In this document: piece after piece, positions 4,426-58,218 of the stretch | Numbering within the stretch: position 1 is the stretch's first letter | Layout of the letters: each line of letters opens with the position of its first letter | Source: Rotaria socialis | Taxonomy: Eukaryota | NCBI GenBank assembly: GCA_905331295.1 | Contig: CAJNYD010000281.1 | Location: 1 to 64,000 of the forward strand | Reading direction: 5' to 3' | DNA: 64,000 bases | The notes under the pieces: generated by a model | What the model saw: only the letters and a program-made list of their open reading frames with translations | What the model was told of the DNA's origin: nothing | Databases searched by the model: none | Translations under genes and position numbers: made by a program

Positions 4426-4605
4426 GAGGATAGTTAATCCGTTTTTATCTATATCTAAAATATAGAAGATAATCTCAAATGAAAATTATAATAGAACAAA
4501 GATATAAGAAGAAGAAAACAAAAAAGTCTAATAAAATGATCCCATCGATCATCGAACAAAGTAACATTTCATTTTCAATAATATTAGATGAAAGATTCGC
4601 TATTG

Positions 4606-5929: not shown

Positions 5930-6061
5930 GGTTACAATATTCTATGGAGAATGCTTATCTATGGTAATAATTTGACAATCATTGCATCTTTCATTATGAG
6001 GGTGTAAGAATTAAATGTTAAAATTGTTTAATTGTTATTTATGTCACCTGTATCAAATAAA

Positions 6062-6083
6062 AGGGTGTGGGTGTGAGGGTGTG
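6062..6083 (+). repeat. Telomeric-type repeats (TGTGGG/TGAGGG) at an element junction
   Basis: AGGGTGTGGGTGTGAGGGTGTG directly abutting a pLTR; TGAGGGTGT also at ~5997. Confidence 0.8.
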
Positions 6084-6320
6084 TTGAATAACCACGATAA
6101 ATTGTTATTTTGTTTGATTTATTTATTTCAATTCTAAAAATTAGAATCATTATCAAGTGGCATAGATATTTATTCTGATCTTAAATAAATAAAATCATTA
6201 AAATAAAATATCCACCAGAAATTTCCAAATTAGTTTTGAAAATTTCATTACACTATGTTAGTGTGTTGAATAACCACGATAAATTGTTATTTTGTTTGAT
6301 TTATTTATTTCAATTCTATT
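6084..6320 (-). repeat. pLTR (one full and one partial copy, ~182-bp period), same family as 20.6-21.0 kb and 22.6-22.8 kb
   Basis: gtgtgttgaataaccacgataaattgttattttgtttgatttatttatttcaattcta at ~6079 and ~6261. Confidence 0.8.
6091..6161 (-). ncRNA. Variant hammerhead ribozyme (U3-A8 core, extended stem III)
   Basis: GCCAC-TTGATAA-T-GATTCTAA(TTT)TTAGAATT-GAAA-TAAAT...ATTTA-TC-GTGGT. Confidence 0.7.
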
Positions 6321-11700: not shown

Positions 11701-13150
11701 TTGTCCAGAGGTTTTTGAAAATCTAAAATATTTGTCAAATATTGATTCATTAAAGAAAATGTTATTTTCGACATCTATATACAAAATGAGAACGATACAA
11801 GATATCGAAATGATTTTAACATATTCTAACTCAGCGTCAAAAACTCATATAGGAAGACTTGCTTCAACCACTAGAAAAGGTTTCCAAAGGATTTCTGAAA
11901 ATCTAAAATATTCTACAAATCTTCAATAAAAGCAAAGAATATCATTTTTAATATTCTCAGTTTATATTCTGAACGGTACATCATAACAAAATGATCTCAA
12001 AGGATTCTAACTCAGCATCTAAAACTGATATAGAAAGAATAGCTTTGAGTTTGACCAAAGGTTCTTTGAGGGTTTTTGAAAAACTAAAATATTCATAAAA
12101 TTCTCATTTAACACTAACAATATTATTTTCAAATTTTCCACATAAAATCTGAACGGTACATGATACTAAAATGATTTTAACACATTCTAACTCGTCATTG
12201 AAAACTCATATAGGAAGAACTGGTTCCAGTACAAGAAAAGGTTCTCAAAGGTTTTTGAAAAACTAAAATATTCCTAAATTCTCATTTAAAGCAAAAACGT
12301 CGATTTAATATTCTTAGTATAGGATGAGAACGGTATAACATATCGAAATGATCTCAACTAATCCTGATTCAGTACCTCAAATTGATCTAAAAAGAACTCT
12401 TTCGACTATCTGGAGAGGTTTTATAGGGGTTTTCGAAAATCTAAAATATTCCTCAAATATCGATTCATACTGGAAAATGTCCTTTTCAATATACACGTTG
12501 TGAAATCAGAACGATACAAGATTTCGAAATGATCTCAATGGATTCTGATCCAATGTCGAAAGGCGATAAATAATGCTCACTTTAAAGGTTCTGAAAGGGT
12601 TTTTAGTTGGTTTCTGAAAAACTAAAATTTTGCTCTATGTTGGTCTATGGAGAGAAATTTATGTTTCATGTTAGTGAGAATAAAGTTAGAACCATGTAAG
12701 ATATTGAAATAATTTAAGTGGCTCTACTTTCACCATCAAATTCTCGTATAAGATATACATTTTCCATGATCTAAACAGATTTCGGAGGGGTTTTCTCAAC
12801 TTAAAATTCTACTAGAGGTTACTTTTCAATGAGAATTTCTTTTTTCGATTTTTGAAGCTAAATAGAGAATAGTTCAAGATATTGGAATGATCTCAACGCT
12901 TAAAGGTTCAAAACTGAAAACTGTTATGAATAGATCATTTTCCAGGTTCTTAATATGCTTAAGAATGGTTTTTGAAAATCTGAAATTTTGATTGAAATGA
13001 ATATGACAAAAAATCAAAATGATTCATGTTATAGATTTTATCTCAATGGATTCTGATTCATCGTCGAAAATTTATATCGTGTGACCCGTTTTAAAGATCT
13101 AAAGATATTTCCTAAGAGTTTTTGAAAAACTAAAATTTTAACAAAAACAC
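8800..13150. repeat. Diverged tandem array of ~180-bp units (~24 copies)
   Basis: Motif atgatctcaacggatct(a/g)attcagcat..aaaactg.tata..a and ggttttt gaaaatctaaaat recur at ~8935, 9116, 9297, 9477, 9659, 9840, 10021, 10203, 10381 ... 12890. Confidence 0.9.
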
Positions 13151-22570: not shown

Positions 22571-22592
22571 TGAGGGTGAGGGTGAGGGTGAG
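22571..22592 (+). repeat. Telomeric repeats (TGAGGG)3.7 at the 3' end of the giant terminon
   Basis: TGAGGGTGAGGGTGAGGGTGAG directly followed by the pLTR. Confidence 0.88.
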
Positions 22593-33147: not shown

Positions 33148-35196
33148 TCAATGATTCTGCTGTTCTTCTTCGTTGTTATCGTCGTCGTCATCATCATCAT
33201 CGTCATGTGGATGTGAGGGTGGACGTAGATTAAGTTCCTTTATTTTTTCAAGCAATGAAGTAATATAATGTGGACATGACATTGATGGATGATTTATCTG
33301 TTGATACCAATCATGAAGATAAGGTTTACCATAACGTTTCTTAGGATCTAAACCATTGGGACATATCATATTTAATCGAGGTTCACCATGAATAATGAAC
33401 AATGTTTCAATAAAATATCGTAATAGAATTGATTTATCATCAGGTACTAGAAAGAGAGAGAGAGAAAATAATAAATCAATCAATAGTAGAATTTACTTAC
33501 AAACGGCAATCATTTTCATTTTATAAAAATCAGTTTCGACATAGGGCATATGAGCAACAGAATCCAATAGAAAACGATCGAAAAATATCCGTTGTTGTTG
33601 TACTTGTATCACTGAGAAGTGACGGTCTCCTTTTTTTATTGATTTTACAAATTCTAAACGTTCTAATACTTTTCTTTGTTGATATGTACGTCTTGGAAAT
33701 GTAAACATATCTTCGGATCGAGTCATACTAACAACTTTTGAAAAGAGATCATTTTCTTGATAAGCTTTTTCTTTCGATTGTGGAATAAAACACCAATATG
33801 TTGGATTATGTTCAAGAAATAAATGAAGTGCCGTTGAACAATGAGCAAAATGTTTATAAAGACGCATCTTTCTTAAATTACGATGTCTAAATATACGTAA
33901 ATAGAAATAAGATAAAAAAAGAAAATTTAAAACAAATCCACAAATAAAAGACTATTTATATACCGAGCACGTTCCGTAGGTGTCATCATTGCATGATAGA
34001 CTGAACAACCAGTTAAAAAACTATGCATCATTTGATTTATTGCCAATCGATGATCTATAGATGAAAAAGTTTTTTTTTTGTTTTCTTCTTCTTCTTCATA
34101 ATATTTTACATACGAGCTAAAGCATCTCCCAATGTACCCGATGTTGAATCAATAAATTCATATAGACCACATGCACATGTCATCACATAAACAATATTTG
34201 ATGTTGTACATGTCTACAATAAAACATAATAATCATTTTATTTTTATTTTCATAAAATAATTCATCTACATACGGCTGGACAATTCAAATAAGTTGTATA
34301 ACCATTGGCAAAACAATGACTGGAACTATGTTCAAAATCAATCGGAGGTAACAGTGATGGTGATGATGCTTCGTTTTCATATCTGAGAGAAACACAACAT
34401 CGACAACCTATAGTATGACATGGTGTCATACTATATCTTGCTTTGGGTGATTCATCATTACAGAAAAGACCTTGTGTTGATGGATATGGTTCAGCACCAC
34501 GAAATCGACATGTTTTCATAAAGAATACATCGACTAAAAAATATAAAAAAGAAAAATTCAGATATCTATAATCATTATGATATTTACCATCTATTTGTAA
34601 GAAAAATTCTAATACTATAGACATTTGTTTTGAATTGAGTGTTGGCTCATCTAAAGCAACAGCGGGTCGTACAAGTGTTTCTCTTCGAAAATGTTCATGT
34701 AATTCAAGAAGTCGATGACAAATAGAATCTAATCGATCAGCATTGCCTCTTATAATAGATTCCTTGACTTGTAATCTTGTCGATAATTCATTTATATCAA
34801 TGGAAGATAAACCAAATGGTTCATGATAATTATCAAGATTATTCAATGTCAATATATTCGAGATGTTTGTAGCTTGTTGACGTCGTACTAGTTCATCTTG
34901 TGAAAGATAACTATCTATAATAGATATTCAATAAAAAGAAAGAAAAGGCAATGTAATAAATATTTTTATAAATATATATACGAACTTGGTACATTTGCTA
35001 ATAATAAATGATCATTGACACCCAAGGTGATTATTGATGTTTCTGGTGGAAATATTGGCAAAAAGAGTTGACTTGCCAAATTATCTGAACTTGAAATTTT
35101 TGATTGATAACCTTGTCGTTCATTATTCGATATTGTTTCTGTTGGTGTCATTGGTTCAGTTTTGATTATATTCATCATCATATTATTATTATCCAT
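33148..35196 (-). CDS. GIY-YIG-family protein with Cys-rich N-terminal region; degenerate active site; multi-exon
   Basis: PCHTIGCRCC, NGYTTYLNCPA|TCTTSNIVYVMTCACGLYEFIDSTSGTLGDAL, LYKHF.HC, LRYFIETLFI...PRLN; collinear with the gene at 40439-42023. Confidence 0.8.
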
Positions 35197-35464
35197 GTAT
35201 TTTTGCTGCTCGGTCCAAATAGTTAAATATTATCTAGAATAGTTCAAAGAGAAACAAACATGAATTAGTTGATATTTTATTTCTCAAACTAGAACAAATA
35301 AGAATAAGAAGAATAAGAAGAAGGTGAATGATGATATCAATAGAGACTAATAACAAATGAATAAAGAAAAAAACAAAAACAAAAACTCAAATGAAATGAA
35401 TGTTTTTTTTTTTTGAAAAGATCGACAAATGTTGTTGTCTTGGATGATTGAAAACAGAAAACAA

Positions 35465-35681
35465 TCAAGGAAATTGTATTGATTCACTTGAACTATTTTC
35501 CATTTTAGTGGGATATTTTGATCGTTTTGTGAATATCATAAAAATAAGATAAATCGTTAGAAGCAATATCAAAAAAGCCATACCAAAACTCAAACCATAA
35601 AGAGTAGTTCTTGATGAATATGAATCATGTTGATTTTCCATGATGTTTAATGGTGATGTTGATGGTGATGTTGATGGTGAT

Positions 35682-35714
<33 letters not shown>

Positions 35715-35920
35715 TTTGTTTCTAAAAGTGATGCATATTCCATATAATTACCAGTCGTAAGTTCTTCAACAATCGGTTTGACACGACTTAATTTTTCACG
35801 AACGATCATCGGAATGGTTGTTGCTTGATTTTTATTCATAGGCATGACACAATCTGCTCGTTGATTATTTTTCTTAAAAACCTTTTGAAAAAGTTCTATG
35901 AATCCATAAATGTTGAACAT
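35465..35920 (-). CDS. Single-pass membrane protein with Thr/Ser-rich stalk
   Basis: Poly-Thr/SPST tract, hydrophobic LYGLSFGMAFLILLLTIYLIFMIF, then TKRSK. Confidence 0.7.
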
Positions 35921-36222
35921 GATTAAGAATTATGAACTTTAAAAAGCAATCTAAAACGAGTAAAAACAAAAAAAGTTTTATAAATATGAATTCAAAGAAA
36001 ACAAAAAAAAAGAACTAGATTCTAAATGCTAGATGAAGAGAAATTTTCTCATAAACAAAAAATCAAAAAGAAAGTTATTTTGTTTTCATTGATTTCGATG
36101 TTTTCAGAACAGATATCTTTTTCTTGTTTGCACATGATTGAAGTAGTTGGACAATTTTTCTTATTTTCATTTGATTTTCTTTTATCATTTTCAATTGTAA
36201 TTGTAATGCTATGAAACGTAAA

Positions 36223-36867
36223 TCAAAGAAATGTAAAATCTTCTTTCTTTTGTTTTTTTATTCTTACTTTGTTTCCGTTGACGAATATGATAATTCGTAC
36301 TAGGTATTTTCTAAAAAAAAAAGAAATCCACATAAATAGATATATCTGTAGACATATATGAATAGGATATATATTCACTCGTTGTTTCATTTGAATTCTT
36401 TCAAGTTGTTCATATTTTTTTAATTGTTCTAAAACTAGATCATAGTCACGTTGTTGTTCATTACGTTCATATTCTTTTAATGTTTCAATATGTTGTAATT
36501 GTTTTGTTTTTATTTCGTCCATATCGAATAGAGATGGTTGATGATCATTGATTTTTAATTCTAAATCAAGTGTTTGTTCCAATCGATTATATTGTTCTTG
36601 TTCTTGTTGTTCTAATTCTTGAAGTTGTCGATCGAGATCAGCTTCCATAATTTCATCGAAATTAATCGGTTGATATTGACATTGAGATTGTTGTTGTTGT
36701 TGTCGATGTTTTTCTTTTTGTAATTGATGCCATCGTGTTAACATTGTTTCAATTTGTTCATGATATGATTTTACAGATGGTCGAGCATTTGTAGTTATCC
36801 TTGGTATATTATTATTATTATTATTATTATAACGATGATCAATCTTAAAGAAATTATTTTCTTGCAT
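36223..36867 (-). CDS. Q/E-rich coiled-coil protein; 3' exon structure uncertain
   Basis: ATG directly after a ttctag acceptor; heptad-like Q/E/L content; probable intron from ~36378. Confidence 0.6.
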   Translation of the reverse strand: MQENNFFKIDHRYNNNNNNNIPRITTNARPSVKSYHEQIETMLTRWHQLQKEKHRQQQQQSQCQYQPINFDEIMEADLDRQLQELEQQEQEQYNRLEQTLDLELKINDHQPSLFDMDEIKTKQLQHIETLKEYERNEQQRDYDLVLEQLKKYEQLERIQMKQRVNIYPIHICLQIYLFMWISFFFRKYLVRIIIFVNGNKVRIKKQKKEDFTFL

Positions 36868-36957
36868 CTAGAACAGAAAAAGAAACAAAACAAAACAATG
36901 ATGTCTATGATAAGAACTACAACTACAACTACAACTACAACTACAAATAATGAAAAG

Positions 36958-39900
36958 TTATTGTTTATTTAATATTGCATGTATTGGTCGTTGTTGACTT
37001 AGAAGTGCATTTAATGAATATTGAGATTTGGTTGTAATATCAAATTTTAATTTGGTGCTTTCGAATTTAAGATTATGTAATTGAATATTGTCCACTAATA
37101 TTTGACGTAATTTTTTATTGAATTCACCTTTTCGACTTATATTATCATAGATATAAGATAGAGGAAAACGACGATACTTCTTTAATGCATCTTGTTTTTT
37201 TTCCATGTATTGTCGTTGTTCATACATAAAATTAAATAGACGACGACGAAATTTTTCATAGCCATGTTGATCTAAATGTAATTGTTGAATTGCTTTTCCA
37301 TCAAAATATTTAAAAAAATGTTTCAAATGTTTTTCCACAAATTCCCATGAATAACCATTAGCTAAATAGGTCATTTCAAGATAGATACGTTCTTGATGGA
37401 AATCTTCAATCGTTGTACAATAACGAACAGCACGTATAAGACTTGATCGTAACCAATGACTATGTGTTCTTATTGCATTTCCATTTGATACATATGGTAA
37501 TGTATATGTTGGTTGATGTTGAATACGACTATAGAGTGAACCATGACGATTTTCTAAATAAATATCAAGATAGGTTAGTTTATCTTGAACTTGTATATGA
37601 AAATCTAAATAATCTTTGTATTTCGAAGTCATCGATTGTAAAATTTTATCTAGTTCATCCATTGAATGATTCCATGTAAAAAAGATTTGATTTTGATATC
37701 GTCCATAGAATTCATTGTGCATTGAATTTTGTTCAATTAAACATTGTTCCATTCGACTAAGATAAATATTCGATAATGTTTCAATCAGACCTGAACTTGC
37801 TGGACCACCTTTTCGATATCGATAAATTTTACCATCATAATAAAATCGATTATTATGTAGAAATAGACTTATCAATTGAATCACTTTTGTTACTTGTATA
37901 TTTTCAATACATGGTAAATGATAACATTGAAGGAAAAAATCTGTTAATGTATTCAACATATGATCATGTGAAACCATATGATAAAAATTGCCAATGGTAA
38001 TCGTGACAAATTTTGTTTTCGAAGAAAGACGATGAGTACGATCAATGTATTCATGAAATTTTCGTAAGAAATCTGAACCATTGGAAAACATTCGTCCTTG
38101 TCGATGTATATTGATGACAGTTCGTAAGATGGAATCAATAAATTGTCCTAAACGATAAGTAGCACTTTGTTTTGTGACCATCACCATAGGTTTAACATCC
38201 AATGTAGTTTGTTTCCATAGATCTGGTAGAAAATATAAATAAGGTAATTCTACTTTACCAATGAGAACAGTAATTCTATTCAATTGATCTTTATATTTTT
38301 TTGTATCCATAAATATTGTTTTAAATTCACGATTCATTGATTTAATTTTTCCTTGTAAATAATCTTGTGTTTCTTGAACATTGTCATTATTAATCTCCAT
38401 TTCTAATTCAAATCGATCTGTTTCTAACATAAATTCATTGCATAATTTTTCAAATAATATTCGATCACCTAAATAGAAAACATTTCTTCGATTAGCTGTA
38501 CGTCTTAAAATTAAATTAAATGATTTTAAATCATTTCGTATCTTGTCAATAAGTTGTTGTTCATAATATGCACGTTCCAACATGGCCTTGGATATCATTG
38601 TTGTTGTTGTTGTTTTCGAAAACATTTTCATATAAAGATCTTTGACTTGTTTTTGTAGAATGATTGTTTGAACTAAATTTACATCAGATTTTACCAATAG
38701 TTTATTTAAATCATGCTGTAATGGTTTATAATTTTTTTCTAAATTCTCTTCGATCAGTTGTTGATACGGTGATACATAAGTTGGTCCACGTGATAACAAT
38801 TGTAAATGTTCTTTATTTAAATCATGCATGGATGCATGTACAATGATCGTTGGTAAAAAACTAATTTTAGCTAAATTAAAATCATCGGATTGTTGACCAA
38901 AATGTTGTCGTAAATAATAATTTAAATGAAATTCTTGTATACCATGATATTTTTCTTCCGCTAATCTATAACGATGTTGTATAATAGTCATCAATGAATC
39001 TGATGTTAATATTGATGAAGCCAATTTTTCTTGTTCTTGATAAGAACGTTGACATTCATATAATTTTTTTTCCGCATCTACAATTGCTTTGGTCATACAT
39101 TCATTAAAATATTTTTGTAATTGTTTATTTTCGTAGTCAATATCTTGATGAAAAAATTCTGGATTTGATGTCAACGTCATCAGTAGCATTGATGAAGCTT
39201 GTGTTACACTTGTTTGTGTTGGTTGATTACATTGAACACGATGTTTCAATTCAATGAATTCATATTTTGTTTGTATGTATTCATTGTATGCTTTATATAG
39301 ATTTGTAGCCATTTCAATCTTTAAAAAAAAAAGAATATGTAGAGAACAAAAAAAGAAAAAAGAAAATATCTACTTGTTGTTCAGTTGGTTGAAGAGAAAG
39401 AAATTCACGTTCTAATAATTGATCTTGATAATCATATTCAAATTGTGCCAAATAATAATCGGATTTCATTCTTGATGGCAGTAGACGATATGTTTCAATA
39501 AATTCATTAAGTTTATCTTCAATGATATCTGTCATCCATTGACGACCATCTTCTTTCAATGTATTCTTTTGTTGTTGTAATTCTTCTAATTTTTGATTTA
39601 TTTTATTGATATATTTTTCAACATAGATTGCATATTGTTTTTCATTGATTTCTTTCATAGTAAATAGTTTCTTTACTTCATTCGACCAGATCTGTTGTTG
39701 AACACCTGCTTCACGATATCGTGTCCAACGTTTTAAATGAAGTTGAGCTACACCAATGCCATGTTGACAATGAATAAAATTTTTTAAATTATTGGGTAGT
39801 GGTCTTCCATTATCATGAAACATTGTACGATGAAACATGTCATCCATTGTTTCTAAATAACTTGTAATTTGATTTGTTTGTTCTGGATGTTGTACATCTA

Positions 39901-40315
39901 TATCTGTTGGTGGTAAACAAATCTTTTTCTTGGGATTTTCTTCTTGACTCGTTGATGGTGTACTCAATGGACGTTTATGACCTTCTGTTGATAATTGACT
40001 TAATTTTTGTGATAACATTTGTTCTTGATCCTGTTGTTGTTGTTGATCACCATGCATTTTATCTAGAATTATAGATGGTTGTTGTTCTTCTTCTTCTTCT
40101 TCTGTGTCTTCTTGATCAGAATAAAAATCTAAATCTTCATAATAATCTTCCATGATCATACGTTCAATTTCTTGTCGATCATCATCCATATCATCATCGA
40201 TGGTAACAATATCAAAGATATCATCAAACCAATCGATATTGTTAAACTTAAATAAAAAGAATATTAAATTAGAAAAAACAAAGTTATTTTAACATACTCT
40301 TGGTAAATTTTCCAT
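36958..40315 (-). CDS. Catalytically inactive Athena RT paralog with N-terminal CC region, 3 exons, ~1083 aa
   Basis: Exons 40315-40298, 40246-39374, 39318-36958. LLSRGPTYV, LRRTAN, LYFLP, VKPMV, NGYS retained; motif A reads VTITIGNFY and motif C YGRYQNQIFF (no Asp). Confidence 0.85.
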
Positions 40316-40438
40316 AATTATAATTGAATGAAATATCTACAATAGAAGAAAAAAAAAACAAGAAAGAATGACTAACAACAATTAATAATGAACGTTTTCT
40401 AAAGAAAGATAGATAGATCAACATAGTTTTTGTTTTAT

Positions 40439-42023
40439 TTAAATCATGGGACGAACTAAATTTTCATAACATAATTCTTCATTGTCTGATATTGGCATTG
40501 TTGAATATTCAATATCTAAATGACCAAATGTATTTAATTTTGTTTGAGCTTGTGTGATAAAAAGAGCTTCAATCACTCGTCGTAATGTACTTGATGTATG
40601 TTTTGGTACTAAATAAAATGAAATAAAATAAAATGAGAGATGGTTAAAATAAACAATAAATACACATTGTCTACTTACATACGGCAATGATTTTAGCTTC
40701 ATATAAATCTAAATGAAAGTTAGGTGTATGAAGATATTTTTTTTCTTGAAAAAATTTTTCAATATCAAGTTTTTGTTCAACAGTAAGATGATAATTCATA
40801 TTGGTTGGTAGTGGTACATCATTAGCAAATTGATATTGATTTGTATCGACAACTGGTAATTCTCGTTCTTGTTGTTGTTCGTCAGAGTCTGTCATTCGTT
40901 GAGGAATAAATGGCCAATATTCAGGATTTTCATCCAAGAAATATTGCATTGCTACTGAACAATGACATGAATGTTGATATAATTGCATACCATCTTTAAC
41001 CAATGTCCTACACATGAATAAACATAGAAATAGAGATAGACAATATTCTTTATTTTTAAGAATAACAACTTACTCAAATGATTTTATTTCACCATGATTG
41101 ATATAATTTGTTAATTTTTTTCCTAAAAGAAATTCTTTGATGATACGATTTCCATGTTTTCGATGATCTAAATATCAACAAACAAAAAATAGATATATAG
41201 AAAAAAGTGAAATTTATCTTAGAAAATTACAAGTAAGACGATGTGGTAATGATAAACTTGTTTCACCAATATAATCAAATTGCTGACATGGACATGTTAA
41301 AACATAGATCGTATTTTGTGTTGTACATGCTGCTGGACAATTTAAAATTGAACGAAAACCATTGACAAAAATATGTTGAATGGTCGATTGAGATTCTCTA
41401 TGTCGTTGTAATAATGATGGTGGTTTTTGTTTTAATCGATGAAACGGATAACATAAACAACAAGATTGTTGTTGACATGCATCCATTGTATAATGGCCAT
41501 AGGGTGGTCGTTCATTTGTTAAAAATATATTTTTGGGTTCATTTTCAATTGATTGACTATCTTGATAGGAACATGTTTTCATATAGAATAGTTCATGATC
41601 CATTTGTAGATAGAATTCCAATGCCACTTTATATTCTTCTAGAGATAGATATTCATGTTGTGCATTTGTTGAAAAATGATACATTCGTCGATGTGCCAAT
41701 CGATCGACTAATGTTAATAGTTTTCTAAAATTAAATTCTAATACATCTCGATGAATATTCCAAGATTGACTAAGAGTTGTCATCCATTGATGATGATCAT
41801 GTTGAGATGTCGTTATCATCGTCGTCTTATAATAACCATAACGTTGACGTTGTTCTAATTGTTTTTCATTGAGTTCCCTTGCTAGAGAAAAAAAAAAGAA
41901 AGGTATCATTATCGATAGAAATCATTTTTTTATTCTCTTACTTGGTACATTGGTTAATAATAGATCATTCGATGATGGATAACATGGTAGAATTGAATCC
42001 ATTGAATCTTGTTCATCTATCAT
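40439..42023 (-). CDS. Stand-alone GIY-YIG endonuclease with Cys-rich N-terminal region, multi-exon, apparently intact
   Basis: CTTQNTIYVLTCPCQQFDYIGETSLSLPHRLT|YHRKHG, LYQH, TLRRVIEALFITQAQTKLNT: Tyr, YIG, Arg, Glu and Asn of Penelope-type GIY-YIG present. Confidence 0.87.
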
Positions 42024-42068
42024 TCTATATATATAATCTACAATAGAAATAGAAATTTAAGATAATAT

Positions 42069-44984
42069 TTATCGAGTTAAAAGATGATTTAATGAAAATA
42101 AATGTTTAACAGTCAGATTTATTTTTGTTTGTTTCGATGATAATTGTGTATGTGAATTTGTATAGGTTGACCAAATACCAAAGAATTTCTTTTTAAATTC
42201 ATGATAAGGTCCATAATCATAGAAATAAAAAAATTCTATGACGGTAGAATTTTGACATCGTTGAAATTTGAAGAGTCGTGAACGAAGTTGTTTATACATG
42301 AATTCGTTTGTTTGAAGTTCATAGATATTGACATTGAAATAACTATTAAATTTTTCTAATTCATTTTCAATAAATTCATTGGAATAACCTGATATTAAAT
42401 AAATTATTTCCATATTGATTCGTTCACGAGTAAAATCTTGATAATTGGAACATACATGTATGAGGCGTATTAATGTTGAACGAAACCATTGTTGATATTG
42501 AACTTTTGGATAATTTGTTACATAGGGTAATATTAATGATGATGTATTCATTTTTGTATGCAATTGTCCATGACGATTTTCTATATGAATATGCTTAATA
42601 TTGATCTTCATACCAAATTCAATATTCATTTCAATCGTATCACCATAGAATTCTTTCAAGTTCTTAAGAAATACATGAAGATGTTCTTTGGATTGATTCC
42701 ATGTAAATAATAGTTCATCTGTATATTGAAGAAGAAATTCATTTTGAAATTGTTGATTATCATTGAACATTTTTTTTCGCCAATAATATAAACATAAAGT
42801 AGATAATAAACGATTGAGATGTGTATGATTAGGCATACCACGATTGAAACTATAAATATGATCTTGATAAATAAATAATGTATGTTGTAAATATAATTCA
42901 ATTAAACTTTCAATAACATTCACCGATAAACCATTGATCAACTGACTTTGACAATGATTTGCCAAAACATGAACGATTCGATTGACATTCGATTGATATG
43001 AAAACATGTTAAAAAAATTTTGAATTTTAATTCTTACTAATAATGTTGTTGATTTCAATTTTGAAGAAGAAGAAGAACAACATTGAATAAAATTAAAATC
43101 ATCATTGACAATAGATTGTTGTTTGAATAGATCTTCAATAGTGGATCGAAGTAAATCATCAAGATAGATAGATAATTTCCATGTTAAATTAGATTTCATT
43201 GAAACCATTGGTTTAATCAATGTTCCATCGAATAGAAACTGAATAGGTTTCAATTGAATATCATCATAGTGAAGAAAAAGTTGTTGATGAATATCTTTAG
43301 TAATAGAATGGCCATGTTCTAAACAATTGAATATTTTATTCATCTTTGATATTCGTTGTTTAGTTTCAATATCCATTTTTGTTCGATGACATAAGCGTTC
43401 ATAATCTTCTTCATGTTCATTCATATAATGTTGACATTGTTCATCATAATGTTTTTCATCAGTAAGACAGAATTGATTTCTATCATCGATTGTTCTTCTT
43501 AAAATAAGTTTATTTTTATGAAGACATTTTCTTATAGTTCCAATAATTTTTTGTTCATGAAATGATCGTTCTAATATTGTTGATGATATAGTTCGATTCG
43601 ATGTAGAAAATAATCGATTGAATTCTTCTTTTGTTTTTTGTTCAATGATATTGAATAATTTTTTATCTTTGGGATATTTTTCAACAAGATCTACTAATAA
43701 TTGTTGTCGTAATGGTTGATATTGTTGTTCATGAAGAAGTTGATCTGATAATTTCAATTGTAATTGACAGGGTGCTACATAACATGGACCACGACGTAAT
43801 AATTGTAATTGTTTTCTTGAAAAATAATTTTTTTTCATACTATTTTTATCTATTTGTAAATTATTGATAAAACCAATATGAGTTCGATCATGACATTGAT
43901 TACATAGATAATACTTGGTATGAAAATCTAATTTTAATTTCATTTCTTCATGTATTAATTCAATACGTTGATGAATTATAGACAATAATGGTTCGTCAAC
44001 TTTTATTTCATTTGTTTGAGATTTTAATTTTGTTTCATATTGAAAGATATTTATTTGTAAACATAGCAGACGTACGGCCATTAATTTTGTTTTTGTTTGT
44101 TGTAATAATTTTTCAAATACATCCATGGGTAGTAAATTATAATCTAATGTATCATAAGATATGGGTGGACGATCATAAAGTATTTGTAATCGATGATAGA
44201 TCAATTCATATTTCATTGTTAATAATTTAAAATTTGTTTCAAAGAATTGTTTTCCAATATCAATCTATGTTCAATGTAACAATTCAAATTATTTTATTTA
44301 GAATTCTCAATTTTAACTTACTTGATATTGTGTTGAAGTTTTTCTCTCATATTGAACTTGTAGTTGATGATCATGATATTTATTATATAATAATGCAATT
44401 TTATATTCAGATTCCATATGAATTTCAATTAAACCATAGTCATTGACTAATTTTTCAATTTGATTTTGTGTATTGGTATCTAATTTATATGAAGCATATT
44501 CTTGTTGATAATGATCCAATTTAATTTTATAATCATGAAGTTGTTGACGAATGCAAGTTTCATTGTAAAACCAAAATGGTTCTTCTTGTTGAAGAGAAAT
44601 TAATTGACCCTGACCCGCTTGTAAATAAAGTGACCATAAATGATAATAATGTTGATAACGTCCAATTTCATAAAGAACTTGAGCTACATGTCGACGATCT
44701 TGTTCATTCATTGAACAATGTAATTTTAATAATTCCATTTGTAAATAGGTTGGTATTGAATCATCATCATCATTATTCAAATGGGTCATTGACAATTGAC
44801 TTAATTGTTGTGATACATCTTCTTGTTCTTCTTCTCCTTGAATTTGAAAATCTTTTACTTCGTCATCGATCACATTGATATATGGACTAAAATAATCATG
44901 TTCTAATTCAATAGGATTCATTATTTCACCAAAGGAATCACCATCGATGACATCGAATGTTGAATTGACTAAATATTTCTCCAT
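42069..44984 (-). CDS. Second catalytically inactive Athena RT paralog, 2 exons, ~952 aa
   Basis: Exons 44984-44322 and 44264-42069. LLRRGPCYV, LILRRT, IKPMV, RGMP, LPYV, SGYS; motif A VRIKIQNFF, motif C LQYTDELLFTW. Confidence 0.85.
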
Positions 44985-46181: not shown

Positions 46182-46433
46182 CTAAACAAAATCTGAACTA
46201 TGTTTTTTTGAATAAAACATAGTATAATCCTGTTCGTTGGCCAAAGGTCCACGTGAATTTTCTTGATTCGTCGCCGTTGATGGATAATGTTTTCGAGCAG
46301 AACAGAATATTCTTTTTATAATAACAAATACTATCACCATGAATAGAATAACGAAGAATAGACATATCATGAGAGTTGATTCATTTTGTTGTTGTAATAA
46401 TGGTTGAACATTTTCACCGATCGATGGTTCCAT
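46182..46433 (-). CDS. Small single-pass TM protein (83 aa), copy A1
   Basis: Short N-terminus, TM LMICLFFVILFMVIVFVII, then KRIFCSARKH; paralog at 46798-47049. Confidence 0.75.
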   Translation of the reverse strand: MEPSIGENVQPLLQQQNESTLMICLFFVILFMVIVFVIIKRIFCSARKHYPSTATNQENSRGPLANEQDYTMFYSKKHSSDFV

Positions 46434-46510
46434 GATTATCTGAAACTAGACAAATGGAAACTATACTAAGGGAAACAAAAACAAAAACAAAAAAAAAACA
46501 ACGGAAGATT

Positions 46511-46726
46511 TTATTTTGATTTATTTTGATGCATATTAGAGATTTGAATACTACAATGATGACAAGGAAGAGAATAACGAAGACGTAGAGTTTGTTCGTT
46601 GACTTCAAATACGTCCACGATGATCGACAGTGTAAGTTTCATCAACGCCATCAAACATAAACAAGCCAAAATAATGATCACACCTGTAGATGTATTCATA
46701 TTGAGATCGATCGTCGGAAACACCAT
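46511..46726 (-). CDS. Small TM protein with CxxC (71 aa), copy B1
   Basis: TM VIIILACLCLMALMKLTLSII, PCHHC; paralog at 47120-47338. Confidence 0.7.
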   Translation of the reverse strand: MVFPTIDLNMNTSTGVIIILACLCLMALMKLTLSIIVDVFEVNEQTLRLRYSLPCHHCSIQISNMHQNKSK

Positions 46727-46797
46727 TATGATTATCTAAAAAACAAAAGAGACAATCCATGAAACAAAAACGAAAAGAAGAGAAAAATTCAATGAAT

Positions 46798-47049
46798 CTA
46801 AATAAAATCTGAAATATGTTTTTTTAAATAAAACATCGTATGATCCTTTTCGTTGGCCAAAGGTCCAAGTGAATTTTCTTGATTTGTCGTCGATGATGGA
46901 TGTTGTTTTCGAGCAGAACAGAATACTTTTTTCATTATAACGAATAATATCACCATGAATAAAATAATGAAGAATATATATATCATGAGTGTTGATTCTT
47001 GTTGTTGTTGTAAAAATGGTTGAACATATTCAGTCATCCATGGTTCCAT
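46798..47049 (-). CDS. Small single-pass TM protein (83 aa), copy A2
   Basis: Same length and frame as A1, with substitutions. Confidence 0.75.
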   Translation of the reverse strand: MEPWMTEYVQPFLQQQQESTLMIYIFFIILFMVILFVIMKKVFCSARKQHPSSTTNQENSLGPLANEKDHTMFYLKKHISDFI

Positions 47050-47391: not shown

Positions 47392-47739
47392 TCATATAAA
47401 ATTTTCATTGAAGAAGAAAGTTGATTTCTTATATCGTCGATAGTAGACTGAAATGCATATCAAACAAAATGAAATAATTATAAATAAAATAAAAAGTAAA
47501 ATAAAATCTTGAACGATTGAAGGTGATTTGAGAAAAAGAAGAAAAGGTCGTTCAATCATATTTGTAATGTTGAGATGAGAAATTTTCGATTGATTGGTAA
47601 ATAGAGGAGAATCTCGTACCGATATCAATGGATTATTGTAATGAGTTTGATGATGATTTTGTGTGAAATCATTGTTGACTCGAACCGATGAAAATGGAGC
47701 ACTGAGAATCCGTTCGTTGGTTCGCATTTCTGCATTCAT
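47392..47739 (-). CDS. Small membrane protein with C-terminal TM and basic tail (115 aa)
   Basis: FILLFILFIIISFCLICISVYY followed by RRYKK. Confidence 0.65.
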   Translation of the reverse strand: MNAEMRTNERILSAPFSSVRVNNDFTQNHHQTHYNNPLISVRDSPLFTNQSKISHLNITNMIERPFLLFLKSPSIVQDFILLFILFIIISFCLICISVYYRRYKKSTFFFNENFI

Positions 47740-47890
47740 GATTGATGAAGAAGATGAAAAAATAAAATCTACAATGAAAAGACAAAAACAAACAAAGATT
47801 GGAAAACAACTACGAATTCAACTAAAGGGTAAAATGAAAAGGATAATGTTTATTTTATTTTTTTTAAATGAACTTCACTCATCGATATCA

Positions 47891-48401
47891 TCAACGTGGT
47901 TTCGGCATGAGTAATTTAGTAGTACCAGCTTGACATGAACAATAAAGAAAAGCAATCAAAGACATAATGATAGTTATACAAATGAGATAGAGCGGCCTAG
48001 AAATAAACAAAAGAAAACAAAAACAATAGTATGAAAATGAAAGAAATTATTTTTTTTTCTTCAACATACCAATTATTCACGATATTGGTTAACCAATTGA
48101 CTGGCAACAATGCAAGATCAGTACCACCTTGCATAAGACGACTACCTTGACTTTTAGCCATGGACAACCATGCATATTTTGCTTTATTGCTTTCAGCATC
48201 GTTTACATTATCATTAACAATAACTGAACTTCCAATGTTTCCTGACGCATCATGTTTCTTGATATCACTAAAGAAATTGAATATACCTCGACGAAATCTA
48301 TGTCGTTGCGGTTGTTGATCATCCACTGGAATTGTTTGAATGAGTGGTAGGATGATGAGAATAAAAGTAAATAAAAATGAAGAGTTGAACAAGAACATCA
48401 T
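47891..48401 (-). CDS. Type I membrane protein: signal peptide, furin-type site, C-terminal TM; 2 exons, ~145 aa
   Basis: Exons 48401-48070 and 47996-47891; MMFLFNSSFLFTFILIILPLIQT signal, RHRFRR/GIFNFF, W|PLYLICITIIMSLIAFLYCSC. Confidence 0.75.
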
Positions 48402-48439: not shown

Positions 48440-48530
48440 TGCTAGGGAGTATTGCCTTTTTATAGTACACATCGGAGGGTGATACATAGAAATAGTTTTG
48501 CTAATAGAATCAAATTGCCTATTGGTTGAA
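48440..48530 (-). promoter_or_regulatory. Putative Pol II promoter at the 5' end of the terminon gene array
   Basis: Minus-strand TATAAAA at ~48458-48464 and CCAAT at ~48521-48525, upstream of the first co-oriented ORF. Confidence 0.45.
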
Positions 48531-48956: not shown

Positions 48957-49515
48957 ATGGCTGCAAATGATATTGACGATGATAATGAACCGTTCGAAGC
49001 TCAATTTTCCATTTACTACGATGAAGTAAATAGAATTAAATTTCTTCTTTTTCTTTTTTCAAAATAGTTTTATTCATTTTCATTTATTTAGGAAAAAGCA
49101 ATAAAACGTGCCAAGAAAAACGATAGTACGTAGAATCAATCGAAAACAAAAAAAAAGATATAATAGATAGAATTTGTTTTTTCTTTTTTCTATTTTACAG
49201 TCAAAAACATGGTCTTTATCACTGTATCAGCCATGGTGATCTATTATTCACATAGACGTGTTAGTCAATATCCAATGTATCATGTTGGTTATTTGGGTCG
49301 TGATTTACTGTTCGTCGTATCATCTACTTGTGCTTCGCGTATGTCTATTGAATATAGTTAGACTTGTTTTTATTTCTTTTGTTTGTTTTTGTTTTGTTTT
49401 AGATGGACAAGGCCCTGATAAAGGTGATTTCATTATTCGTGCAGCTGTATCAGAGGTACATCATAATCGAAATCATGAACAACTTGGTCAATTCTACGTC
49501 ACCATTCGACAATAG
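48957..49515 (+). CDS. Hypothetical ~117-aa protein, 4 exons, divergent from the terminon array
   Basis: Exons 48957-49025, 49092-49125, 49201-49338, 49403-49515 join in frame via GT-AG introns. Confidence 0.7.
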
Positions 49516-53100: not shown

Positions 53101-53979
53101 TTACATTGTATGATTATGCATCAACGCTGAACATAATACAATCAATAGAACTGACTTTTATTCAATGTTCAATCAACTATATTGAAAATGGTATCCACAT
53201 GTCATCATCGAAATCATGACCAATCTATGACTATAGTCATATCAACAACTAAATAATTATCTTCAAAAAAAATAAAAAATACATATGAATTATCGTATTT
53301 TCAAATTCAACTAAATCAAATCATCCCTTTTTATTATGTGCATTATTTTCTTTCGCTGAATCTATGAAACTACATCAAAACAAAACGAAATCATTGATCC
53401 TATTTCATATCCACCATTTTCTATTGATTTACCAATCATGTCCTGGATTTTACTACGATTATTTTTTAGGGTCCATTATTTAGCAAATTATTAAAGATCA
53501 CTGAATTTCAACTAATATGGACAAAAATAGTTTCTTTCGATTAAAAAACATCAAAAAAATATTTTAACAGTGGCGCTCTCTTTTTGATGAATCATTTTAT
53601 CCATAGATTACTGTATAACATTTCCACTGATATGGACAAATTCAATCCTCAGAGCACAGAGTTTCCTAACTAACTCGAATATAATTGAACATCTATAATA
53701 AGATGGAATACCAAAATACATTTTTTGTCAAACAATCAAAGATTTTTAACAGTTTCATACTTGAAATTAGCACTCATCCTATTCAAAACATACAAAAATC
53801 TAAAAAAAGACATAACCAAAACATGAATTTATTTCACCATTCATTCCTAAACGATACCAACATGATCAACAACACTTGATTTTCATATCCCTTAATCAAC
53901 ATAGTTCCAAGGCTCAATCGATTTTTAGAAATAAAGGAAAAATTTCATCGAAACAGAGTTTGAAAAATCCGCAATGACA

Positions 53980-54370
53980 AAACTGTTTCAAAACTGGTGA
54001 ATTATATATCAGTCGACGTCATTTTTCATGCTGATCACGAATCTCTCATTGGTTTTTCAATAGCATGTAGTGTCGAAGAGAAATCATCGATTCTCGAGTG
54101 AAAGCTTCGGAAAAAAATGTCGAAAAGAAAATGTGCTCGAATCCTATTGAATTATATATGAGAAGACGTCGTTTCTCATGCTGATCACGAATCTGTCGTT
54201 GGTTTTTCAATTCAATGCAGCATCATACACAAATCATCGATTTTTCAATGAAGATCGCTGAAAAAATTCATCCATCGAAATTCAAGTCCAACCATCATGA
54301 ATACTACATCAGAAGAATCGCTTTTTCGAGCTGATCACGAATCTGTCATTGGTTTTTATGCATCATTAAA
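53980..54370. repeat. 150-bp tandem repeat (3 copies)
   Basis: gctgatcacgaatct.tc.ttggttttt at ~54030, ~54180, ~54330. Confidence 0.8.
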
Positions 54371-55979
54371 TTTGAGAAAAATCATACGTCAATCAGGGTC
54401 CCAATTAGCCGATTTCCATGCCGTAATATCTCCATAACGGCTGTATGGAATCGCGTCATACTTTGGCATCAGGTTCGCAGGTCAGTAAGTGGTCGAAACG
54501 ATCGAAAAACATAAATAAAAGTATTTGGGAAGCTACTTAGTCATGAAATGTGCTACAAGGTGCAAGGTGGCCCATGGTCTGATGGCGTCCGATAGGAATT
54601 TATGAAATAGAAAATGGGTTTTTTTTGTGGATGACAATCGCGGAATCGATTCATTATACTGTTATAAGGTATCTTTGAATAATTTTATTATATATAAATC
54701 AAAACTCATGGAAATAGCTTTGAAATAGTTTAAATTAGTTCGTCATAACAAAAAAGTGGTTGCAACAAGTGAATGTGTTATATCGAAAGCTTCAGAAATA
54801 AATAAGAAACTATCTCATTGAGTTTTTTTCAACAGTTGAAATGCGCAAAGCTATATAATGTCAGAAGTTCAACTTAAGAATAAATTTTGAATTTTCCTAA
54901 TATGTTTATACGTGAATTGGAGATTATTGCGTTATAATTCGGAGAATTATTTAGAGGTTAAAAACGTTGAGATTAAAATGAATAATTAAAGTTCTCGGTT
55001 GTAGAATGCACTATCAAACATGTTGTATGCAAATTCTAAGAGTTTTCAGTTCCTCTAAAATTTCTTAAGTAAGAAATATTAAGTCAAACATCAATCTGAA
55101 GCATGAATTTTACGGTTAGAAAAAGCAATTATACCCGGGACAATTTTTCATGAAGCTCTTTTGAAGATCTCCAAACCCTAAAAACCGTTATGTATTTAAG
55201 TGGCATCTTTAAAACTGATCCTGATTTTAGTCCGCGATTTTTCGATTTCGGAGACGAAGGAAACCATTTAGGTTTCCGAAAAAAAGAACTCGAAAATCGA
55301 AAATAGTATTCTCGGATACCACCTAGGGATTCCACCCATTTGGGAATGGATTCGATTTCTTATTACGTCTGTCAGATACCAACACGGTATCCTCGGATAC
55401 CTTTTCTAATACTCAAGTTTATGTTTCAAGGGCATAGGTTTCCTAGAATATCGTGTGGGTTTCCGAACACAGTACTCAGGTATTCGAGGATACCTTACAC
55501 GCATTGAATTCGGTACTCTTGAAAACCGAGAGGTTCCCAACACGTCGGAAACGATTTAGGTACTGTTGAAAATATTTCAGTATTCCGGAAACCCTTTCGA
55601 AAACCAAAAACGTTTCCGATAGGGTTCGTGAACTGATATCCATTTTTCAGGATACGGAAACTTTTTAGAGTGTATCCAACATCAATTCTTCAACCCAGAA
55701 TCCCAAAGGACTGCATCGGATAATAGGATTTAATCAGGTTCCCATCGAATTCGTTGTCGGATTAATCGAAGTGGGTATGCCTGATCATAACAACTTCAGC
55801 GACTTTGAAAACGCATCGGGCAACGCTTTGAATGCAGACTATACATTTATTTCTTTGAATAGGTTCAACCTTGGGTAATAGACGAAAGTGCTTTTAGTTG
55901 TACGTTTAAAAAATTCGTACAAATGTCAATTAAAAATGTAAAAAAAATAATCGTTTTCACAATGGAACAAAAACATCTG

Positions 55980-56489
55980 TTATTCGTATATCAGTTGCGG
56001 TGCCACATTTTTCGGCAGCATGGCTTGTAAGCTTTCACAAGATTTTGCTCGTAGCCAATCAAGGAAAATATCAGCTGCATACTGTGTATATACTCTGTGT
56101 TCCTCTTCCAATATCATTTCCTTTAAGAAATGATAAGAATAACACACAGTTACCTTACCATTGGCCGCGGTGTTTGTGGCCGCAAGAAGATAAGTCGCAG
56201 TTCCTTCTGTACCAAATGCTTTAAACTCGATTTGTTTGAATTCAGACGCACCGGCTCCGCTAAATTGAATATTCAAGCAAAGCGTTTCAATGAATTCGTC
56301 GATGCCTTCGATTTCCGTTATCTTCAGTACTTTCGGTAATGCCCTTATGTATTTGTCACCATCCGCAGCAGACAGTAAAACTCTTATATTATTTACACTG
56401 CTGTGACTTTTCTGGAGTGACCTTTTTGCCAAATGTTCTTCTACTTTGTTTATATTCACACGCTTCACACGCAGTTGCACGTCACTCAT
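55980..56489 (-). CDS. Hypothetical protein (domain A), 169 aa, intronless
   Basis: Open ORF; similar to the N-terminal half of 57349-58218 (IFLDWLRAKSCESLQAMLP vs SALQWLKERAYEEIHQRLP). Confidence 0.75.
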   Translation of the reverse strand: MSDVQLRVKRVNINKVEEHLAKRSLQKSHSSVNNIRVLLSAADGDKYIRALPKVLKITEIEGIDEFIETLCLNIQFSGAGASEFKQIEFKAFGTEGTATYLLAATNTAANGKVTVCYSYHFLKEMILEEEHRVYTQYAADIFLDWLRAKSCESLQAMLPKNVAPQLIYE

Positions 56490-56713
56490 CTAGAACTAAA
56501 CGAAACGATATTTATTTTAAAATGTCCTCCCTTCAAATGCTAATATGGTGTGCTACTGGAAAAGAAATATTATAAAGCATCTATTCTAGGAATAAAAGGA
56601 ATGAATTTAGAAACAAAATATTAATATTGTCGGCTGTTATATTAATATAACGAAACTAGTTTGAAAAATCTTTACAGACGAGAGAATGCTTTCGTATAAG
56701 TTACTATACTGAG

Positions 56714-57109
56714 TCACTTCATATGTGAACACAGATTGACTTGAAGTGCGGTGATGTACACATGTAACAGTTGGTTTTCCGGTATAAGAATCATTGTTAA
56801 CGTATAGTATGGTCCATCATTAAATACTGCTGTAGCGGTGATTTCTCTCGCACTTCCATCGTGTAGTAAAAAATCTTTTATTTGTTGTAATGCTTCTTCT
56901 GAATTAGTAGCATGCTTACAAAATTTATTGATTTCTCTGATACGACGTAAGAACTCTATCCCATGTACTTTTCTGTTCATAATATGGTAGCGCTCGTCCG
57001 ACAGCTCAGGTAACGATAGTATATTTTTCATCAGTTCTTCAATGTTGTCATCGTTTAAATTATTTTCTACGAATGTTATTGGCTTTCCTGGTTTCTTCGT
57101 GTCACTCAT
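56714..57109 (-). CDS. Hypothetical protein (domain B), ~131 aa from ATG, intronless
   Basis: ATG directly after a tttcag acceptor; similar to the C-terminal half of 57349-58218 (IREINKFCKHATNSEEALQQIK vs IRDIAEFCKHTNDTEGALEQIR). Confidence 0.75.
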   Translation of the reverse strand: MSDTKKPGKPITFVENNLNDDNIEELMKNILSLPELSDERYHIMNRKVHGIEFLRRIREINKFCKHATNSEEALQQIKDFLLHDGSAREITATAVFNDGPYYTLTMILIPENQLLHVYITALQVNLCSHMK

Positions 57110-57348
57110 CTGAAAGAATTCACATAAGACAGTTTTATAAAGAAAATGTTTATATTCTGTTATATATGACTGAAGCAAGTGTCAAAAATGGGAAAGCGTT
57201 TCATGGAAATCATTATAAAGAGTACAATGAAGTATTTTGAAATTGTTACTTTTATTTGCTTCTTACTTCGGTTCGAACATTTAATAGGGATGTTGAAGAA
57301 GTATTTTATCAATGAGTATCGTTTTTTTTCTGGAGCAACTTCTGATAT

Positions 57349-58218
57349 TTACTTTCGCATAGGTGTTAATCGAACATGAATACCGTTGCTACACACATGA
57401 ATCAGATCGTCCTGGGGTATAGCAACTATTGTTAGTGAATACGATGCACCACCTTGATAGAAAATCCAAGCAATGATTTCCACGGGAACTTTAGTTGCCA
57501 TTATATGTTGTCGTATTTGTTCCAATGCGCCTTCTGTGTCGTTCGTGTGCTTGCAAAATTCGGCGATATCTCTTATATCATATAGCGTGAGTCCATTTTT
57601 TGTCATGTTTTTCTGTAAAACACAGTAACGCTCGTTGGCCAGTGTTGGTGATGATTTTATAACACCCATTATTATCGTGACATCTTCCTGTTGCAAACGA
57701 TTATCTTGAAAATCTATGCGATTAGGCTTCCTTTCGACCATGCAATCATCTATTGGCATATTATTATCAACCTCAGGCAACCGCTGGTGTATTTCTTCAT
57801 AAGCTCGCTCCTTTAACCATTGTAAAGCAGACCGTTCATCGGCTGGCTGTATATCTGCCTGCCTCGTGCGTACAGCTGTTCGTGTCAATTTATGATTAGT
57901 ATTCGTGATTTGTATTGATTTTCTGTCCGTTCCGAACTGGATTAAAACTAAGATGCAACAAAGATCTCCTTTTTCATCGATAAATTCGAAGCTGTTTGTT
58001 ATGCTATCATGTAGATTGTCAATTGCTTTGATGTTTTCTTTACTAAATTTAGCACCATCATGAAACGATTCGAGTTTCCAAATTTTACACATGCCACTTA
58101 TGTAAGTTTTAGCTTCGTCTCGTGATTTTAACACCTTGATATTGTTGGTTGTTGTATATTTCCAATTGTCTACCCCTTTAAGATCATTATTAGTATTGTA
58201 CCGTGCAATAGTAGCCAT
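57349..58218 (-). CDS. Hypothetical two-domain (A-B) protein, 289 aa, intronless
   Basis: Long ORF; each half aligns by eye with one of the two downstream genes. Confidence 0.8.
   Translation of the reverse strand: MATIARYNTNNDLKGVDNWKYTTTNNIKVLKSRDEAKTYISGMCKIWKLESFHDGAKFSKENIKAIDNLHDSITNSFEFIDEKGDLCCILVLIQFGTDRKSIQITNTNHKLTRTAVRTRQADIQPADERSALQWLKERAYEEIHQRLPEVDNNMPIDDCMVERKPNRIDFQDNRLQQEDVTIIMGVIKSSPTLANERYCVLQKNMTKNGLTLYDIRDIAEFCKHTNDTEGALEQIRQHIMATKVPVEIIAWIFYQGGASYSLTIVAIPQDDLIHVCSNGIHVRLTPMRK

Follow-up and report, generated by a model that had tools for sequence, protein, structure and literature searches.

A small, predicted furin-processed membrane protein encoded by a Terminon-like retroelement of the bdelloid rotifer Rotaria socialis

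Introduction

Open reading frames (ORFs) with transmembrane (TM) domains have already been reported in general terms in Terminons, the Athena Penelope-like retroelements of bdelloid rotifers. Bdelloid long terminal repeat (LTR) elements carry small TM ORF3s, which have been proposed to be fusogenic or to substitute for an envelope (PMC5408684, in the part of the text available). The FAST-like protein sORF2 of insect LTR elements is found at invasive protrusions between soma and oocyte and has been connected with transfer from the one to the other; in standard culture assays sORF2 was negative (PMC11952523). For the persistence of retroelements in bdelloids, which have long been asexual, one explanation put forward is horizontal transfer that extends even to non-LTR elements (PMC7943196); this bears on proteins such as the one described here. 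In the literature on Terminons, furin and Penelope-like fusogens we found no description of a family that combines a signal peptide, a furin site and an amphipathic ectodomain; the primary Terminon description from 2017 may already show the ORF.

Here we describe a gene for a 145-aa protein in a 64,000-nt window, i.e. the whole stretch of R. socialis DNA that was analysed (contig CAJNYD010000281.1). An initial annotation of the window had read the product as a miniature envelope-like protein with features of class I viral fusion proteins. We have compared the protein with its relatives, with known fusogens and with the surrounding element.

Results

The gene and its transcript signals

The gene encoding the 145-aa protein is real and conserved. 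On the minus strand, the ORF 48401–47997 is broken by a single plausible GT–AG intron (48069–47997), and exons 48401–48070 and 47996–47891 together give a product of 145 aa with the stop at 47891. An annotated R. socialis protein (P0002) has the identical sequence; its UniRef label, 'ATP synthase F0 subunit 8', is unsupported in Pfam or NCBIfam. In two related metagenome loci, L001 and L002, the intron has the same position and phase and a length of 68 nt. Many other homolog calls in our protein alignment (A4) end at or just past the equivalent of Trp111, which is expected of unspliced gene calls. Contigs with related DNA cover 47.2 to 54.9 kb piecewise and gave no splice evidence. The features of the gene are as follows:

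48455–48464, minus strand: TATA box upstream of the gene; a matching motif is present in L001 and L002
48070–48401, minus strand: exon 1 (residues 1–111), with the predicted signal peptide, pro-region, furin-type site and ectodomain; identical to P0002
47997–48069, minus strand: intron of 73 nt, GT–AG, phase 2 inside Trp111; same position in L001 and L002
47891–47996, minus strand: exon 2, with the TM helix, Cys130 and Cys132, a 15-residue tail and the stop
47854–47859, minus strand: AATAAA, a candidate polyadenylation signal 3' of the gene

Family-wide, the intron separates the membrane-proximal Trp exactly from the TM exon. Intron retention in many homologs would place a stop right behind this Trp and give a secreted form; in the window's gene it would yield a different hydrophobic tail.

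Predicted layout of the protein

The sequence supports a type I membrane protein of the secretory pathway that is predicted to reach the cell surface and to be cut by furin. Hydropathy peaks lie at about residues 3–21 and 113–131, and two Cys residues are found where the TM helix exits. The basic stretch RHRFRR, with residues 35–38 as furin-type positions P4–P1, directly abuts GIFNFFSDI. Predicted cleavage leaves 107 aa of the precursor. In an AlphaFold2 model built from 23 sequences (mean pLDDT 65.9, pTM 0.35) helices are found at residues 2–23, 73–109 and 111–140, and the parts between them are unstructured. The layout can be described as follows:

48330–48401, minus strand: predicted signal peptide, about residues 1–24, with a presumed cleavage point; KD hydropathy peak 3–21, model helix 2–23
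48288–48299, minus strand: furin-type site RFRR, residues 35–38; motif kept in 20 of 23 homologs and present in 1.9% of shuffles
48264–48287, minus strand: post-cleavage N-terminal peptide, residues 39–46, a short amphipathic helix that ends in a near-invariant Ser-Asp
48174–48263, minus strand: polar, near-neutral linker, residues 47–76; dN/dS 0.88, pLDDT below 50 at 48–69
48070–48173, minus strand: amphipathic membrane-proximal helices, residues 77–111, with invariant G92, D95, P100, W103 and W111
47939–47995, minus strand: TM helix, residues 112–130

Family-averaged hydrophobic periodicity is 95–105 degrees, i.e. helical, for residues 39–47, 77–91, 86–99 and 100–111. Residues 52–63 of the linker form a weakly conserved patch with beta-like periodicity. 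The initial annotation had named a signal peptide, a short pro-region, a basic site followed directly by a hydrophobic peptide, an amphipathic pre-TM segment, a TM helix and juxtamembrane Cys, and all of these are confirmed.

Conservation in the family

Protein searches gave 3, 18 and 17 proteins, from which P0032 (944 aa) was removed as a compositional match. All family members with a named source are bdelloid (Rotaria or Adineta), the remainder being metagenome proteins; no paralog was found within the window. Alignment A4 contains 23 rows with 24–54% identity. In 20 of them R-X-[K/R]-R stands before the conserved peptide; of the other three, one has R-X-X-R, one represents the lineage in which only one Arg is left, and one is truncated or degenerate. 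When residues 24–111 were shuffled 20,000 times, the motif appeared in 1.9% of the products, so its conservation in the family is not due to chance. The retrieved family proteins that cover the motif region number 70, and 8 of them lack the motif (a ninth, P0037, was flagged as well but carries it). Five of the 8 come from a single lineage, otherwise intact, that occurs in three Rotaria species (P0003/P0008/P0012). The initial annotation had made its reading depend on homologs keeping the furin site: most do, but this intact lineage does not. A single Arg replaces the motif there, and 135 of 136 residues are identical between two Rotaria species. The lineage is thus a natural control for the need of furin priming.

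After the site, positions +2, +3, +5 and +6 are hydrophobic and +4 is Asn, followed by Ser and Asp; in A4, N42 is conserved in 16/23, S45 in 22/23 and D46 in 21/23 rows. The pro-region varies (P4 lies at residue 24–59 in signal-bearing members; the pro-piece has about 10–35 aa), while the post-cleavage ectodomain, measured from the site to Trp111, is 71–75 residues long in 20/20. Five residues of the membrane-proximal helices (G92, D95, P100, W103 and W111) do not vary across A4, and mean identity is 0.59 in these helices versus 0.49 in the peptide. Sequons (N-X-S/T) occur in 17 of 20 post-cleavage ectodomains, which fits a luminal topology; the window's protein has none. All eight TM-bearing rows have Tyr-Cys where the TM helix exits. 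A signal-like segment is seen in 15 of the 23 rows, and the TM helix is visible in 7 plus L001/L002.

The gene is under purifying selection, strongest on the cleavage site and peptide. Specifically, in comparison with L001, residues 35–46 (12 codons) have a dN/dS of 0.08, the linker 0.88, the helices 0.36, the TM helix 0.42 and the tail 1.35, and the whole gene about 0.52–0.53; these values come from one effective pair with small counts.

The host element

The surroundings of the gene fit a bdelloid Terminon-type (Athena/Penelope-like) retroelement. Co-oriented ORFs, a reverse transcriptase (RT) and telomeric repeats agree with the Terminon description (PMC6431247); hammerhead cores at 21.2–21.6 kb may fit it as well. 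Features outside the gene are:

22571–48401, minus strand: Terminon-type element body, with co-oriented ORFs, RT motifs, GIY-YIG-like ORFs and TGAGGG x3
47392–47739, minus strand: next gene, a 115-aa single-pass membrane protein, adjacent in relatives too
46182–47049, minus strand: tandem duplicate pair of 83-aa single-pass proteins, each with an N-terminal part of about 20 aa, a TM helix, a basic patch and Cys
48957–49515, plus strand: divergent spliced gene with a common upstream region; exon ends partly uncertain, 67–70% aa identity to L001/L002

Between 22.6 and 48.5 kb, 30 of the 32 ORFs of at least 100 aa are on the minus strand. The element body contains an RT with GGAMG and YIDD motifs (28519, 28350) and a pair of longer ORFs derived from RT. 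Two GIY-YIG-like ORFs, related to each other, are also present; the copy at 41.2 kb shows the Cys motifs given for Terminon endonucleases (bioRxiv 2021.04.23.441226). The intron-split RT ORF had no RT match in Pfam or PDB, so the RT label rests on motifs and self-similarity. Telomeric TGAGGG x3 at 22571 ends the run of co-oriented ORFs. No hammerhead core lies directly upstream of these repeats; cores at 21635, 21480, 21376 and 21173 adjoin a second telomeric junction at about 21106 (minus strand), and further ones are found at 18331 and 174. None of the element's genes was identified as a capsid gene.

Together with the three genes that follow it, the 145-aa gene forms a cassette of four genes for small single-pass membrane proteins, of which it is the first. 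The 83-aa proteins (46182–46433 and 46798–47049, minus strand) lie inside a duplication of about 610 nt; in topology they are nearer to sORF2/FAST proteins than the 145-aa protein is, and they have no myristoylation motif. The divergent gene has four exons coding for about 120–150 aa, and the exon tested gave no Pfam match. The genomic context of relatives comes from two loci, L001 and L002, and suggests a conserved bidirectional promoter at the element head. The 145-aa gene had initially been called the first gene of the element. It is the first behind the TATA box at 48464, and 'first gene of the transcription unit' is a fair description, but genes lie upstream of it (the divergent gene from 48957 and a minus-strand ORF at 50184–49876), no telomeric repeat pair was found above 22.6 kb, and no telomeric cap marks a 5' end. 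Its place as the first gene of the whole element is therefore supported only in part.

Several other parts of the window are worth recording. A single-pass ORF with a Thr/Ser/Pro-rich N-terminal part (35465–35929, minus strand) lies between two RT-derived/GIY-YIG modules. The stretches 36958–44216 and 33493–41909 (minus strand) form an ancient internal duplication; it takes in the long RT-derived ORFs (30% identical to each other), the GIY-YIG-like ORFs (25%) and the ORFs beside them. A second, shorter Athena-type unit (616–6100, minus strand) runs from telomeric repeats near 6063, and its RT is 67% identical to the one at 28–29.5 kb. Diverged tandem arrays with units of about 180 nt and 150 nt are present at 8800–13150 and 53979–54430, respectively. 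Three unexplained ORFs, two of them paralogous (34%), and a hAT transposase are found at 55980–58218 and 61668–63763 (minus strand).

Comparison with class I fusion proteins and database searches

The 145-aa protein is not a class I fusion protein. What it has in common with that class is type I topology (a signal-like N-terminus and a C-terminal TM anchor) and a predicted priming protease site. The fusion peptide of class I proteins is long, apolar and Gly/Ala-rich, with about 20 residues. Here the apolar stretch is about 7 residues long, and the P1' residue is Gly in 4 of 20 sequences and Asp, Ala, Ser, Phe, Tyr or Asn elsewhere. On interfacial hydrophobicity scales, the first 20 residues after the site are unfavourable (positive sum) in 20/20, and the first 8 are mildly interface-seeking (negative sum) in 19/20. 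No heptad repeat follows the peptide: residues 24–72 are largely unstructured in the AlphaFold2 model, and the best heptad windows are confined to the pre-TM helices. Cys is absent from the post-cleavage ectodomain in all 20 sequences, and there is no receptor-binding (SU) subunit; the pro-piece has about 10–35 aa. For the F peptide of errantiviruses and baculoviruses, the consensus after RxxR is G1, G7, K11, G15, D18 and D21 (PMC6085415, partial text). At most two of these six positions are matched in any of the 20 sequences, with G7 and G15 in 0/20 each. A search for longer relatives scored 7991 candidates and, with E values up to 10 allowed, found none, which is weak evidence.

Searches of Pfam, NCBIfam, PDB sequences, viral contigs, viral and PDB folds and the ESM Atlas gave no similarity to a known fusogen. 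More specifically, Pfam returned no family for exon 1 or for P0002. When 16 rows were searched, seven weak single-member matches appeared (e.g. Orthoreo_P10, E 0.084, in one row), which we read as TM composition. NCBIfam and phages gave no match. The sole PDB sequence match was phage RpbA (E 0.03–0.04), a chance hit, as RpbA is a cytoplasmic RNA-polymerase binder. Viral contigs gave 31 and 22 pattern matches, none of which was confirmed. The best viral Foldseek match had E 2.6 and PDB folds gave none; with a model pTM of 0.35 these blanks mean little. The best ESM Atlas score, 0.79, is in the chance range.

Near-identical copies in two genera

Three proteins, from A. ricciae (P0085), A. steineri (P0020) and R. 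socialis (P0041), are identical across 103 residues. A R. magnacalcarata protein (P0026) matches A. steineri partial sequences at 117/119 and 116/119 positions and an A. ricciae partial sequence at 82/82. As the linker is near-neutral, such identity requires very recent sharing. All near-identical Adineta copies are, however, on contigs of at most 2.8 kb, while many Rotaria copies are on contigs of 17–67 kb; given these short Adineta contigs, library carry-over explains the data equally well. Horizontal spread between Rotaria and Adineta is therefore weakly hinted at and should be taken as a lead only.

Discussion

The best explanation of our results is that the 145-aa protein is a minimal protease-primed protein that merges or remodels membranes and helps the retroelement to move between cells. 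We favour this reading tentatively. According to it, the protein would enter the ER by its signal peptide and become N-glycosylated, and Golgi furin would strip the pro-piece of 10–35 residues, unmasking a short amphipathic N-terminal helix. The membrane-proximal helices would rest in the outer leaflet of the element-bearing cell itself, with the juxtamembrane Cys probably palmitoylated. The unmasked peptide could then reach a neighbouring membrane over the flexible linker of fixed length, and local merging or protrusion would let an RNA–protein complex of the element cross to the adjacent cell, from soma to germline or between animals. The mode would be that proposed for FAST and sORF2 proteins and not the trimer-of-hairpins refolding of class I proteins. 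A transmission role is assumed here since transmission is the simplest use that a selfish element could have for a surface protein maintained by selection. Thus, element movement, proposed initially for a minimal env-like protein, is probably still the likeliest purpose, even though the class I envelope reading fails.

Several lines of evidence argue for membrane merging. The furin-type site is kept in 20 of 23 homologs at 24–54% identity, directly before the conserved amphipathic peptide; a variable pro-region is combined with an ectodomain of constant length; site and peptide are the most constrained part of the gene (dN/dS 0.08 versus 0.88 in the linker). The frequent sequons, the invariant Tyr-Cys at the TM exit and the place of the gene at the head of a cassette of small membrane genes point in the same direction, sORF2 (PMC11952523) and the bdelloid ORF3s (PMC5408684) offer precedents, and the near-identical Rotaria and Adineta copies add a weak hint of horizontal spread. 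Against it stand the lack of similarity to any known fusogen in sequence and fold searches, the intact Rotaria lineage and the single variants without R-X-[K/R]-R (8/70), weak or absent FAST hallmarks (no myristoylation motif, 0–4 basic residues after the TM helix, a missing amphipathic tail) and the lack of an identified capsid gene that would point to a cargo. Moreover, the short apolar stretch ending in Ser-Asp could equally be a protein-binding motif. A more far-reaching form of the proposal is that the signal peptide, the 8-residue amphipathic N-terminus unmasked by furin, the flexible ectodomain of fixed length and the membrane-proximal helices make up a minimal fusogen of a new design. 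Through it, Penelope-class Terminons, which have no capsid, could travel from cell to cell and from one rotifer species to another much as if they had an envelope, and the protein would be the first infectivity factor of a non-LTR retroelement; we consider this rather doubtful.

The near-invariant Ser-Asp and the furin-less lineage keep two other roles alive. Cleavage by furin may expose a short N-terminal motif through which the protein attaches to a receptor of the host or to a second copy of itself, as in a tethered ligand or adhesion protein, with no merging of membranes; this could serve to make contact between cells, to keep out related elements or to manipulate signalling in the host. 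The conserved Asn, Ser and Asp (N42, S45, D46) look like specific recognition, and both the unfavourable interfacial score over 20 residues and the tolerance of Asp at P1' agree with this. We know of no host receptor, and such binding does not alone account for the conservation of the membrane-proximal helices, which matches that of the peptide (0.59 vs 0.49); ligand or adhesion use is thus fairly unlikely, though to be taken seriously. The other role is that of a scaffold similar to flavivirus M, which would shape or coat element-carrying vesicles together with the three downstream small TM proteins and would itself be no fusogen. A pro-piece, flexible linker, amphipathic helix and TM anchor do resemble prM/M (PMC7902656, partial text), invariant Gly92, Asp95 and Pro100 suggest helix packing, and the gene sits in a suitable cassette. 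However, the element yielded no fusogen that could act as its partner, the present protein has one TM helix against two in M and a pro-piece of 10–35 aa in place of the folded pr domain, and neither sequence nor fold gave a match, so that we judge this scaffold role unlikely.

The remaining explanations are much weaker. Many peptide precursors consist of a signal peptide, a pro-piece, a basic site and an amphipathic peptide. The matching layout, together with the divergent gene conserved alongside in L001 and L002, which could be an antidote, would allow a membrane-active toxin or antimicrobial-type propeptide that keeps the element in the lineage or benefits the host. This is improbable: the peptide remains tethered to the TM anchor with no second cleavage site, its mature N-terminus is not cationic, and Pfam gave no match. 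A true class I envelope of reduced size, whether F-type or retroviral TM, that was taken over from an LTR element or a virus is very improbable. The order of furin-type site, apolar N-terminus, Trp-rich pre-TM segment, TM helix and Cys would suit it, as would the F-type env, the short gp41-like ORF3 and the ORF types common with Terminons in bdelloid LTR elements (PMC5408684, partial text), but it is contradicted by the missing heptad repeat, an ectodomain of just 71–75 aa with no Cys (0/20), at most two of six F consensus positions and, as weak evidence, no longer relative among the 7991 candidates. That the ORF is non-functional or a chance product is scarcely credible. No RNA run is listed with the gene, which is uninformative, and the conserved intron, the region-specific constraint at an overall dN/dS of about 0.52–0.53 and more than 20 divergent members largely refute it.

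Regarding the persistence of retroelements in asexual bdelloids, a conserved, predicted protease-primed surface protein of Terminons is a concrete single-gene candidate for transfer. If it fused membranes, it would be a new small fusogen architecture beside FAST and sORF2, and envelope-like function would no longer be confined to other kinds of element but include non-LTR ones. Otherwise, the family is still an unannotated, retroelement-borne group of secretory proteins under selection.

Comparison with known systems

The class I Env proteins of the errantivirus/baculovirus F/TelKA group likewise have a furin-type site, an apolar N-terminal peptide directly after it and a C-terminal TM anchor. 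F-type Env has about 600 aa, a coiled coil and disulfides (as far as the sources consulted describe it), none of which is found in the 145-aa protein. Flavivirus prM/M is, like it, a small furin-matured membrane protein with a linker, an amphipathic helix and a TM anchor (PMC7902656, partial text). It differs in having two TM helices, a folded pr domain and the E partner, where the 145-aa protein has one TM helix and none of the rest, and the two have no detectable homology.

The ORF3s of the bdelloid elements Vesta4 and Vesta6c are short TM proteins of the same animals, compared here by description, with 210–230 aa against 145 aa; RXXR is present in Vesta4 (PMC5408684, partial text). Vesta4 ORF3 has two TM regions with cysteines between them, then RXXR and a coiled coil, whereas the 145-aa protein has neither ectodomain Cys nor a coiled coil.

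Similarly to sORF2 of MDG1-group LTR elements and to reovirus FAST proteins, the 145-aa protein is a small single-pass mobile-element protein without canonical Env, with an amphipathic ectodomain motif, juxtamembrane Cys and a constant ectodomain length (PMC11952523, PMC12945298, both in part). The precursor is within the size range of that class (about 60–200 aa, single-pass, N-out), and tails contain Cys in 8/8 with 0–4 Lys/Arg in their first 15 residues, a weak polybasic patch; a C-terminal amphipathic tail occurs in homologs and is absent from the window's protein. The ectodomain is different: it has 71–75 aa instead of about 30 (20–40), no MGxxxS/T and no Cys, thus no cystine loop, and the N-terminus is signal-peptide-like; a signal peptide predicted to be cleavable and a furin site stand where N-myristoylation would be expected. 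The host, too, is a non-LTR element with no identified capsid. Since the protein falls outside the FAST/sORF2 class by ectodomain size, myristoylation and processing, our claim is that it may work like these proteins. By element type and by host group alike, its counterparts are the TM-domain accessory ORFs of bdelloid Terminons.
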